Assembly (NCBI GenBank): GCA_013289955.1
Contig: JABCYZ010000019.1
Location: 28,090-92,089, forward strand
Length of the DNA: 64,000 nucleotides
From: Acidobacteriota bacterium
Lineage (GTDB): Bacteria > Acidobacteriota > Terriglobia > Acidiferrales > UBA7541
Direction of reading: 5' to 3'
Numbering within the stretch: position 1 is the first letter of the stretch; the number at the start of each line of letters is the position of its first letter. Shown here in pieces: positions 58,533 through 60,719 of the stretch. The notes beneath the pieces were generated by a model that worked only from the letters and a program-made list of their open reading frames with translations, made no database searches and was not told the origin of the DNA. Position numbers and translations under genes: made by a program.

Positions 58533-58655
58533 GGTGATTCTCCTTCTTTTTCTGAACGTCGTACTGCTTACTGCCAAAAACTGCGGATGGCGGCTGGGAG
58601 GCCGCCGCAACAAAACCAACGGCGCCGGCCTCACGGCCGACGCCAGGGAAACTCC

Positions 58656-59357: not shown

Positions 59358-60376
59358 GCTTCGGCGCCTCCGGTCAGGAGAAGCTGCCTCGCCATGCGCG
59401 CGTAGATATCCACGGCTTCCGTCAGTTGTTTTTTCGGGATGCGTTCTTCGGCGGTGTGCGCCAAATGGATGCTCCCTGGACCGATCAAAAATGGCTGGCC
59501 CCACGCGCCGTTAAATGTAGGAATGTCGGTGGCGAAGGCGACGACGGTAGTGGGAAGTCCATCGAAAGCGGAGAGCCGCAACGCGGGCGTGTAGAACACT
59601 TCGCGGACTTCGGCGCGTCCCCCGGCCGCTGCCTGAACGGCTTGGCGAATTTCCTCGGGATTCCCCACCGTGCGAAACATGATTTCCGCCTGCGCGTGGT
59701 CGGCAACCACGTTTGGCGCGCGACCTCCGGCGATCGTGCCAATATTCAGGGTGCTCTGTCCCAGCAGCGGATCTTCCGGCAGCGGGATCATGCGAATGGC
59801 CCGCAAGACGTCGAGCAGCGAGTGGATCGCGGAGTGGCCCAGTTCGGGGTAAGCAGAGTGGGCAAGTTTTCCGTGCGCGGTAACTTCAAAACGCAGCGCG
59901 CCCTTGGAACCGAGAGCAAGCTGATTTTCGGTGGGCTCGCCATTAATCAGGAACCGCGCGCCACGCGGATCGGCGGCAGCCACTTTTGCGCCGGCGCTGT
60001 TGCGCTCCTCTCCGACCACAAAAAGCAATCCGAGATTTGTGACGCCGGAGTCGAGAAGCTTCCCGACGGCGGCAATCATCGCGGCGATGATGCCTTTGGC
60101 GTCGCAGGAGCCGCGTCCCCAGATGAATTCGGCATCTTCGAGGGACGGAAAAAACGGCGGCACCGTGTCCATGTGCGTCGAAAGCGTGACGATAGGTTCG
60201 CCCCAGGAGGCAAAAATGTTATCGCGGTCCGGCTCGACCGGAATGCGTTCGAGGCGGCCGGACGTGCGGGAGGCGAGCATGGACAGTTCGGCGATCAAGA
60301 AGTCCGCCACCTGTTGCTCGCGATTGGTCGTCGATTCGATATCGACAAGCGCGCGCGTAAGTTCAAAAAGATTCAT
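59354..60376 (-). CDS. M20 ArgE/DapE-like deacylase, probable succinyl-DAP desuccinylase by context
   Basis: THMDTV, GRGSCDAKG, VGEE, NGEPT and GSIHLAH; first gene of the riboswitch-led dap operon; ATGA-coupled to dapB. Confidence 0.85.
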   Translation of the reverse strand: MNLFELTRALVDIESTTNREQQVADFLIAELSMLASRTSGRLERIPVEPDRDNIFASWGEPIVTLSTHMDTVPPFFPSLEDAEFIWGRGSCDAKGIIAAMIAAVGKLLDSGVTNLGLLFVVGEERNSAGAKVAAADPRGARFLINGEPTENQLALGSKGALRFEVTAHGKLAHSAYPELGHSAIHSLLDVLRAIRMIPLPEDPLLGQSTLNIGTIAGGRAPNVVADHAQAEIMFRTVGNPEEIRQAVQAAAGGRAEVREVFYTPALRLSAFDGLPTTVVAFATDIPTFNGAWGQPFLIGPGSIHLAHTAEERIPKKQLTEAVDIYARMARQLLLTGGAEA

Positions 60377-60446
60377 TCGACCGGCTGTTTCTGGAGGGAA
60401 CGATACGAAAGGAAGGAACCACGAAGAAATGCTCGAGGCCGCTGCC

Positions 60447-60666
60447 TCTCGATAGCGCTCCATCCGGCTTTAGCACTGGCCATGGCTAAACGGCCATCTA
60501 AACGGATGACAGTGGACAGGCCTTAGACCTGTTCCCCAACCGCTGCGGCAACAGCTACCGCTGCGATTTCGGCGGAGTACAACAATCTGGCCCCTTTTGC
60601 CGCGGCCTCCGAAGCTGATCGGAACTGCTCGCCGGGCTACTCATGGCCTCCGCACCTCTACCAAGA
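60447..60666 (-). ncRNA. Lysine riboswitch (L-box) with enlarged P2 and P5
   Basis: Minus strand TAGAGGTGCG..ATGAGTA..AAAAGGGG..GCCGAA..TGGG..ACTGTCA..TGGAGCGCTA; 9-bp P1 TCTTGGTAG/CTATCGAGA; complementary L2/L3; lies upstream of the dap genes. Confidence 0.93.
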
Positions 60667-60719
60667 ACAATCCAAGTGTAGAAGAGCCGTGGGGAAAAAG
60701 CGAGTGGAATTTGGAGCGG

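Follow-up and report, generated by a model that had tools for sequence, protein, structure and literature searches.

How does a lysine riboswitch act on the genes behind it when its leader holds neither an intrinsic terminator nor a Shine-Dalgarno (SD) sequence? The question is raised by a locus in a stretch of 64,000 nucleotides (hereafter the window, meaning the whole stretch that was analysed) from an Acidobacteriota bacterium of the Acidiferrales (UBA7541; GenBank assembly GCA_013289955.1, contig JABCYZ010000019.1, positions 28,090 to 92,089), where a lysine aptamer on the minus strand is followed, on the same strand, by a gene for an M20 ArgE/DapE-family deacylase and then by dapB, dapA and dapD. 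We give an even chance to the reading that this riboswitch controls the M20(dapE-like)-dapB(-dapA-dapD) operon, that its off-state would come about by ligand-gated exposure of a pyrimidine tract, and that its output would be centred on Rho. The main feature of the leader behind the aptamer is a long conserved helix in which the tract is paired with the very strand that closes the aptamer.

The lysine aptamer and its relatives

An earlier note on this DNA, made from the letters alone, had proposed a lysine riboswitch with all core motifs at 60376-60666. When the whole window was compared with Rfam using cmscan, the Lysine family (RF00168) was the sole match above the gathering score: it runs on the minus strand from 60668 to 60445, covers positions 1-182 of the 182 in the model and scores 72.5 bits (gathering score 30, E-value 5e-17). 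The coordinates proposed earlier fit this match, and the motifs quoted with them are those of the minus strand. On every point that could be tested, the element at 60668-60445 is a genuine member of the lysine riboswitch family.

Relatives were collected with the M20 protein as query against one genome per species, which gave 80 loci of 65-93% protein identity, nearly all of them in Acidobacteriota metagenome-assembled genomes labelled Acidiferrum, Acidoferrum or Acidiferrales. A full-length Lysine match (46-98 bits) lies directly upstream of the M20 gene in 70 of these loci, and in 62 of the 70 dapB follows the M20 gene immediately; among the nine loci that lack the riboswitch and have a full upstream flank, dapB is downstream in none. 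The riboswitch therefore tracks the dap-operon context and not the M20 gene itself. Earlier work had already described lysine riboswitches ahead of biosynthesis operons in Acidobacteria (PMC5584792).

For the structural alignment, which holds 71 sequences, the secondary structure was built from sub-domain folds of the window sequence, and the pairing of each helix was compared with controls in which the partner strands were slid against each other. Overall, 89.9% of the cells are paired, against 30-46% in the slid controls; each helix is 79-97% paired, and 48 of the 73 pairs have changed in a compensatory manner, that is, on both sides. The nucleotides of the junction and core (AGAGGUGC, CCGAA, UGG, ACUGUCA and GGAGCGCUA) do not vary or are conserved to 90% or more. 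P1, formerly given as 9 bp, can form 10 bp. The complementarity described earlier between L2 and L3 holds for CAGCT with AGCTG, while GCAGTT, named as the other option, is not the partner; the kissing pairs of relatives read, for instance, CAGCU/AGCUG, CCGCU/AGCG, UUCGG/CCGAA or AUUGAG/CUCAAU. The sequences AUGAGUA and AAAGGGG, candidates for the loop-E and K-turn motifs of P2, are present and conserved. We infer from the aptamer sequence that lysine is the ligand.

A conserved alternative helix that would unfold the aptamer

Minimum free energy (MFE) folds together with the pairing counts point to a second use of the strand that closes P1. In a helix of 28 bp, long and imperfect, which we call the anti-P1 helix and which resembles an antisequester stem, the 3' strand of P5, J5/1 and the 3' strand of P1 form the 5' arm and are paired with the pyrimidine tract downstream; P1, J5/1 and the base of P5 are thereby excluded. 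This helix is 87.0% paired in the alignment, against 51-60% in the slid controls, and 11 of its pairs have changed on both sides. A G-to-A change in GGAUG(G/A)AGCG, for example, is matched by a C-to-U change in the tract (alignment columns 10/82), giving 42 G:C, 12 A:U and 12 G:U pairs. Taken alone, the anti-P1 helix is predicted at -32.6 kcal/mol and P1 at -9.9, and the nearest-neighbour model favours the anti-P1 conformer over the enforced aptamer fold by about 15 kcal/mol. So large an advantage argues for a decision taken kinetically, in the course of transcription, and control of the switch would thus be kinetic according to this model.

The earlier note had singled out a 5-bp GAGGC/GCCTC hairpin downstream of the aptamer. 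The hairpin exists in the window sequence, yet it is not a conserved structure in its own right: it is 77% paired, is embedded in the larger and better-conserved helix, and its A-U pair is found in only 26 of the 70 relatives. As a functional element it was dropped for the 28-bp helix.

With regard to composition, only about 0.3% of 50-nt windows are as rich in pyrimidines as the tract; the idea that it is a repeated motif was dropped, as TTCCTTCCTTTC is present a single time in the window. Its predicted accessibility depends on the state of the aptamer: across 69 sequences, the unpaired probability rises from 0.28 in the ligand-free model to 0.52 in the model with P1 formed (p = 8e-13). On the predicted structures, therefore, the pyrimidine-rich segment is single-stranded only in the presumed repressing state, its bias of C over G being modest. 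Directly 3' of the anti-P1 helix stands the motif AGAAA, which has no obvious pairing partner and at which two RNA contigs terminate (60388-60391). Possible roles of the motif are pausing or termination, cleavage by an RNase, or landing of the ribosome on an A-rich site.

The search for other output devices

Both classical outputs of lysine riboswitches were sought in the leader. A terminator scan was empty there, in agreement with the earlier note, and the only local hairpin (-7.6 kcal/mol) is without a U-tract; accordingly, no G+C-rich hairpin with a U-tract that alternates with an antiterminator, as in terminator-type L boxes, is present. Canonical terminators do occur elsewhere in the window, which makes the absence specific to this leader. 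The note's statement that no clear SD precedes the start was likewise confirmed: none is found at the M20 ATG (60376), against GGAGG at dapB and AAGGAG at dapA, and the window sequence thus offers no SD 5-12 nt before the start that could be paired with an anti-SD in the bound state. When the 3' strand of P1 was withheld, the region downstream of P1 (to +46) gave no conserved structure, with an RNAalifold consensus of -0.46 kcal/mol, so that there is no conserved helix to sequester the start codon; of 200 shuffled sequences, 195 fold better than this region does. The start region itself (-18 to +5) has much the same unpaired probability in both states (0.49 versus 0.51, p = 0.07, 69 sequences).

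A subgroup of relatives (L028, L031, L033 and L034, and also L032, L039 and L040) carries a purine-rich insertion of 12-22 nt (…GACGGACAGAAAAGGC…) between the tract and the start, which is often GUG. In L028 and L031-L034 the predicted accessibility of the start region falls in the bound-state model, and the platform of this subgroup appears, from these predictions, to have moved towards SD sequestration.

RNA from related strains

The soil metatranscriptome data consist of assembled, unitig-like contigs from relatives with 90-99% identity. The contigs of X25 cover only 60446-60664, at depths of about 90-500, and none lies in the platform or the coding sequence; X31 gave a single contig, 60445-60664; X20 and X23 cover the leader only and have none in the coding sequence, with depths below those of X25 in other runs. 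One contig of X42 ends at 60391 and one of X29 at 60388, just past the anti-P1 helix. The contigs of X27, X28 and X35 run into the coding sequence at equal depth. Taken together, the contigs weakly suggest a mixture of truncated, aptamer-only transcripts and read-through transcripts.

Proposed switch and rival explanations

From these elements we propose the following switch. Without lysine, the pyrimidine tract would invade P1 and zip up the 28-bp helix with the strand made of P5-3', J5/1 and P1-3'; this would wreck the binding pocket and hide the tract, and the operon would be transcribed and translated. With lysine bound, P1 would be locked and the tract left single-stranded, so that about 70 nt of pyrimidine-rich, poorly structured and SD-less RNA would lie ahead of the start codon. 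Rho could then load on the exposed tract and terminate transcription early, and/or an RNase E-type cleavage could take place, in either case switching the operon off and leaving behind a stable, trimmed aptamer fragment. A role of Rho or an RNase as reader of the exposed tract is plausible under this model: since no intrinsic terminator, SD or SD-sequestering helix is present, Rho loading or RNase access is the most economical output. A gene for rho was not among the ten large open reading frames (ORFs) of the window that were scanned, of which four matched alr, dnaB, selA and purB and the other six gave no match or a weak one.

Several observations weigh against this proposal. The earlier note had called the tract pyrimidine-rich and G-poor; the former is correct, but G amounts to 22% against 34% for C, a modest bias that ranks in only about the top 7% of windows, and the role of the tract in the anti-P1 helix had been missed. 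Moreover, the composition is already explained by the pairing of the tract with a purine-rich aptamer strand. The same genome has canonical intrinsic terminators, for example at 58645-58620, so that recourse to Rho is not forced. RNA contigs of this kind are interrupted at points of strain divergence, and such points coincide with the borders of the aptamer; their depth, too, is a poor measure. Lastly, in the MFE folds of L028, L031 and L033 the released tract is paired with an SD-like AAAGG and the GUG start. From the latter it follows that the tract can serve as an anti-SD where an SD exists, and hence that control within the family may in part be translational.

This last point leads to translational control as an explanation for the window itself, in which either the released tract or the folded aptamer would lower 30S binding at the SD-less start, and the helix of the free state would leave AGAAA...AUG open for the ribosome to land. 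The sequestration predicted in L028, L031 and L033, the drop in accessibility in L028 and L031-L034, the conservation of AGAAA and a weak stem across the AUG (UCGUUC/GAAUGA, 6 bp) in the MFE fold of the window would all suit it; the lack of an SD, the lack of a conserved helix over the start and an accessibility of the start that is equal in both states, in the window and in most relatives, speak against it, and we consider it unlikely. We hold about the same opinion of a purely nucleolytic repression, a rather unlikely course of events in which an RNase E/G-type enzyme would cut the exposed tract and the AGAAA region when lysine is bound, Rho being uninvolved. The conserved anti-P1 helix and the state-dependent accessibility of the tract fit this equally well, aptamer-only fragments are seen in the metatranscriptomes, and in Escherichia coli lysC RNase E acts at the same region as Rho (PMC10946432). 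Nothing in the present evidence tells an RNase-only mode apart from one through Rho. That the anti-P1 helix is so much the more stable suggests a short kinetic window, which would favour a co-transcriptional reader over post-transcriptional decay.

Intrinsic termination of a non-canonical kind, at the apical hairpin of the anti-P1 helix (60446-60411) followed by the U-rich UUUCGUAUCGUU, we regard as improbable. That hairpin is conserved within the long helix and the run behind it is moderately rich in U, but it has three internal mismatches and no proper U-tract, its stability is low and the terminator scan did not report it; furthermore its formation is possible with and without ligand, and termination there would hence be unregulated. 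The idea that the aptamer, enlarged as it is, might be a relic in decay or without function can draw on its unusual length and on nothing else. Its score, the conserved core columns, covariation in every helix, the tight link to the dap operon context and the fact that it is transcribed all oppose that idea, and we give it hardly any credence. Ligand-gated exposure of the tract, with Rho at the centre of the output, thus remains the reading we prefer.

The two insertions

The aptamer of the window is larger than usual, as the earlier note had observed: it measures 224 nt against a model of 182 positions, and the excess lies at two sites, upper P2 (57 versus 42 nt) and the loop of P5, with an insert of 27 nt. 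The enlargement, which the note had read as a structural variant, is no peculiarity of this locus. Aptamer length ranges across the order from 182 nt (L077, 98.3 bits, with neither insertion) to 270 nt (L028), and close relatives have 219-232 nt; the enlarged form is the usual one in the genus-level clade and a single point on a continuum.

The bulge in P2, formerly put at about 11 nt, is real and has 12. Among the 71 sequences the site holds between 2 and 47 nt, and its long versions look hairpin-like by eye. As to P5, an extension to about 50 nt had been ascribed to local duplication of CCGTTTAG. The extension stands, at 48 nt; the CCGTTTAG repeat is private to the window sequence, and relatives with the same extension read GGCCGCAUUGCGGCC-type distal stems, so that local duplication is not its origin. 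P5 length varies from 17 to 64 nt in the clade. Roughly 45 sequences carry the extension, and in these six of the seven pairs of the distal stem are compensatory, which identifies the extension as a maintained helix. Both insertions are clade-specific, peripheral, tolerated and variable in length, and the canonical core is intact: the 3'-strand site of P2 and L5 are two hot spots that take up 0-60 extra nt without disturbing it. One RNA contig (X9) skips exactly the P5 extension (37 nt; 60466-60504) and derives from a co-occurring relative whose P5 is short; both length variants of P5 are therefore expressed in the same soil.

Promoter, operon and neighbouring features

In nearly all of the 70 riboswitch loci, P1 is preceded at a fixed distance (7-12 nt) by a -10-like hexamer of the form TAnACT or TAnnnT. 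In the window it reads TACACT and is, on sequence grounds, probably the -10 box, with transcription starting about 7 nt downstream near 60668, almost exactly at P1. The RNA contigs have their 5' ends at 60663-60667, near the start predicted from TAnACT. A sigma-70 scan gave no full promoter, and no matching -35 was recognised. The coordinates of all features are listed in Table 1.

Table 1. Riboswitch, leader and operon features in window coordinates.
Feature	Position	Strand	Basis or remark
-10-like hexamer TACACT	60675..60680	minus	alignment of 70 loci
Aptamer, RF00168, 224 nt	60445..60668	minus	cmscan and pairing counts, 71-sequence alignment
P1 5' strand UUCUUGGUAG	60658..60667	minus	10 pairs possible, 95.9% paired across 71 sequences
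P2 domain: GCGGA/UCCGC base helix, GGCC/GGCC, AUGAGUA (putative loop-E region), upper helices, L2	60572..60653	minus	sub-fold and pairing counts
L2 kissing-loop bases CAGCU	60613..60617	minus	86% paired, 5/5 pairs compensatory
Insertion 1: 12-nt P2 bulge AGAUUGUUGUAC	60577..60588	minus	3' strand, flanked by GGCC/GGCC segment and GCGGA/UCCGC base helix
P3 hairpin	60539..60567	minus	92.5% paired, 8/9 pairs compensatory
L3 kissing-loop bases AGCUG	60552..60556	minus	partner of L2 CAGCU
P4 hairpin	60514..60535	minus	93.9% paired
P5, 48 nt, 18-bp extended hairpin	60461..60508	minus	sub-fold and pairing counts
Insertion 2, P5 extension: UUUAG/CUAAA and distal stem-loop	60467..60502	minus	27-nt insert versus the model
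P1 3' strand CUAUCGAGAG, also used by the anti-P1 helix	60446..60455	minus	pairing counts
Anti-P1 (antisequester-like) helix, 28 bp, GGAUGGAGCGCUAUCGAGAGG... with ...CCUUCCUUUCGUAUCGUUCCCUCC	60393..60465	minus	MFE folds and pairing counts
Apical hairpin of the anti-P1 helix, -7.6 kcal/mol, possible in both states	60411..60446	minus	local folds
Pyrimidine tract UUCCUUCCUUUCGUAUCGUUCCCUCC, candidate Rho/RNase entry site on release	60393..60418	minus	composition and predicted accessibility
AGAAA directly 3' of the anti-P1 helix	60388..60392	minus	'CCAGAAA' columns nearly invariant in the clade
M20 ArgE/DapE-family deacylase, first gene of the presumed regulon, without SD	ATG 60376, stop 59354	minus	profile matches
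dapB	59357-58656	minus	ATG overlaps the M20 stop (ATGA); GGAGG 10 nt upstream
dapA	58532-57594	minus	TIGR00674, 347 bits, above cut-off
dapD	57597-56746	minus	NF008808, 299 bits, above cut-off

The order of genes 3' of the riboswitch on the same strand (M20, dapB, dapA, dapD) makes the element a leader of lysine genes. The top matches of the M20 protein are models of succinyl-diaminopimelate desuccinylase, yet they stay below their cut-offs, and the gene is probably DapE; its close homologues carry names of Candidatus Acidiferrum (M20) hydrolases. An ORF of 369 amino acids that begins at an ATG within the aptamer (60463), in frame with the M20 gene, was set aside as a product of mechanical ORF calling: the spacing between aptamer and start shifts by 1-2 nt among relatives and would so break the frame. 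False N-terminal extensions from this or a similar ATG are probably present in several database entries of 369-380 amino acids.

The gap of 123 nt between dapB and dapA contains a strong terminator-like hairpin on the minus strand (58620-58645; 11 bp, 9 of them G-C) followed by UUGGUUUUGU, and 3' of it another G+C hairpin, which also has a run of U (about 58575-58610, minus strand). The transcript of the riboswitch may for this reason stop behind dapB; alternatively, dapA-dapD may be subject to a separate attenuator. Elsewhere among the relatives, an Acido-Lenti-1 small RNA (RF01687, 39.9 bits) is found on the minus strand of L062 (1011-1080), with about 160 nt between it and the lysine riboswitch that follows in that locus. 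L049 and L051 have 50-170 extra nt between the platform and the M20 start, in L049 with a direct repeat of GGTTGACCGCTTTGCGGTCACGCA; these inserts could be small mobile or repeat elements.

Significance and comparison with known systems

Extended to the whole of the Acidiferrales, our proposal reads that the lysine riboswitch has lost both of its classical outputs, that it now acts solely by exposing, under control of the ligand, the aptamer-unfolding strand to Rho and/or an RNase as reader, and that the 3'-strand site of P2 is a previously undescribed dock for a variable accessory hairpin of 2-47 nt; in this wide form we put it forward tentatively and would not be surprised to see it fail. 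The locus would offer a simple natural case (a single conserved alternative helix, with neither terminator nor SD) of factor-dependent riboswitch output outside the Proteobacteria, in a lineage of very abundant and hardly cultured soil bacteria. Within this clade one and the same tract appears either as an exposed entry site or, in L028 and L031-L034, as an anti-SD, which appears to be a snapshot of a change in platform type. Furthermore, standard Rfam annotation conceals such architectural diversity, and the insertion hot spots are useful for structural modelling and for better covariance models.

The reference aptamers of the lysine riboswitch or L box are those of Thermotoga maritima asd and Bacillus subtilis lysC. 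With the RF00168 family the present element shares the full covariance model, the five-helix junction, the J1/2, J2/3, J4/5 and J5/1 motifs, the AUGAGUA sequence of the putative loop-E region, the kissing of L2 and L3 and the lysine genes downstream. It differs in its length (224 versus about 180 nt), in the bulge of 12 nt that the 3' strand of P2 carries between base helix and putative loop-E segment, and in a P5 longer by 27 nt; unlike B. subtilis lysC, it has no intrinsic terminator.

The lysC riboswitch of E. coli, the direct precedent for a Rho or RNase output, reportedly acts on translation, on RNase E cleavage and directly through Rho (Caron 2012; Ghosh et al. 2024). There, an antisequestering stem hides an overlapping, C-rich rut/RNase E site without lysine, and the site is exposed with lysine, as was demonstrated experimentally (PMC10946432, Ghosh et al. 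2024). Our locus is alike in that a ligand-free stem uses the 3' strand of P1 and would hide a region that is freed when lysine locks P1. It is unlike E. coli lysC in that the latter has an SD-sequestering stem, whereas here neither an SD nor a conserved sequestering helix is found, and in that the dependence on Rho and RNase E is experimental there and deduced from predicted structures here. Rho-dependent riboswitches are also reported to precede mgtA of Salmonella and ribB of E. coli (Hollands 2012) and thiC of E. coli (Chauvier 2017). The FMN riboswitch of Corynebacterium glutamicum is Rho-dependent as well (PMC4288175). The likeness to these four lies in a terminator-less leader and in the ligand-controlled exposure of an unstructured, C/U-rich segment, here as predicted; they belong to other ligand and aptamer classes, and in the Acidiferrales element the segment exposed would be the very strand that otherwise unfolds the aptamer.

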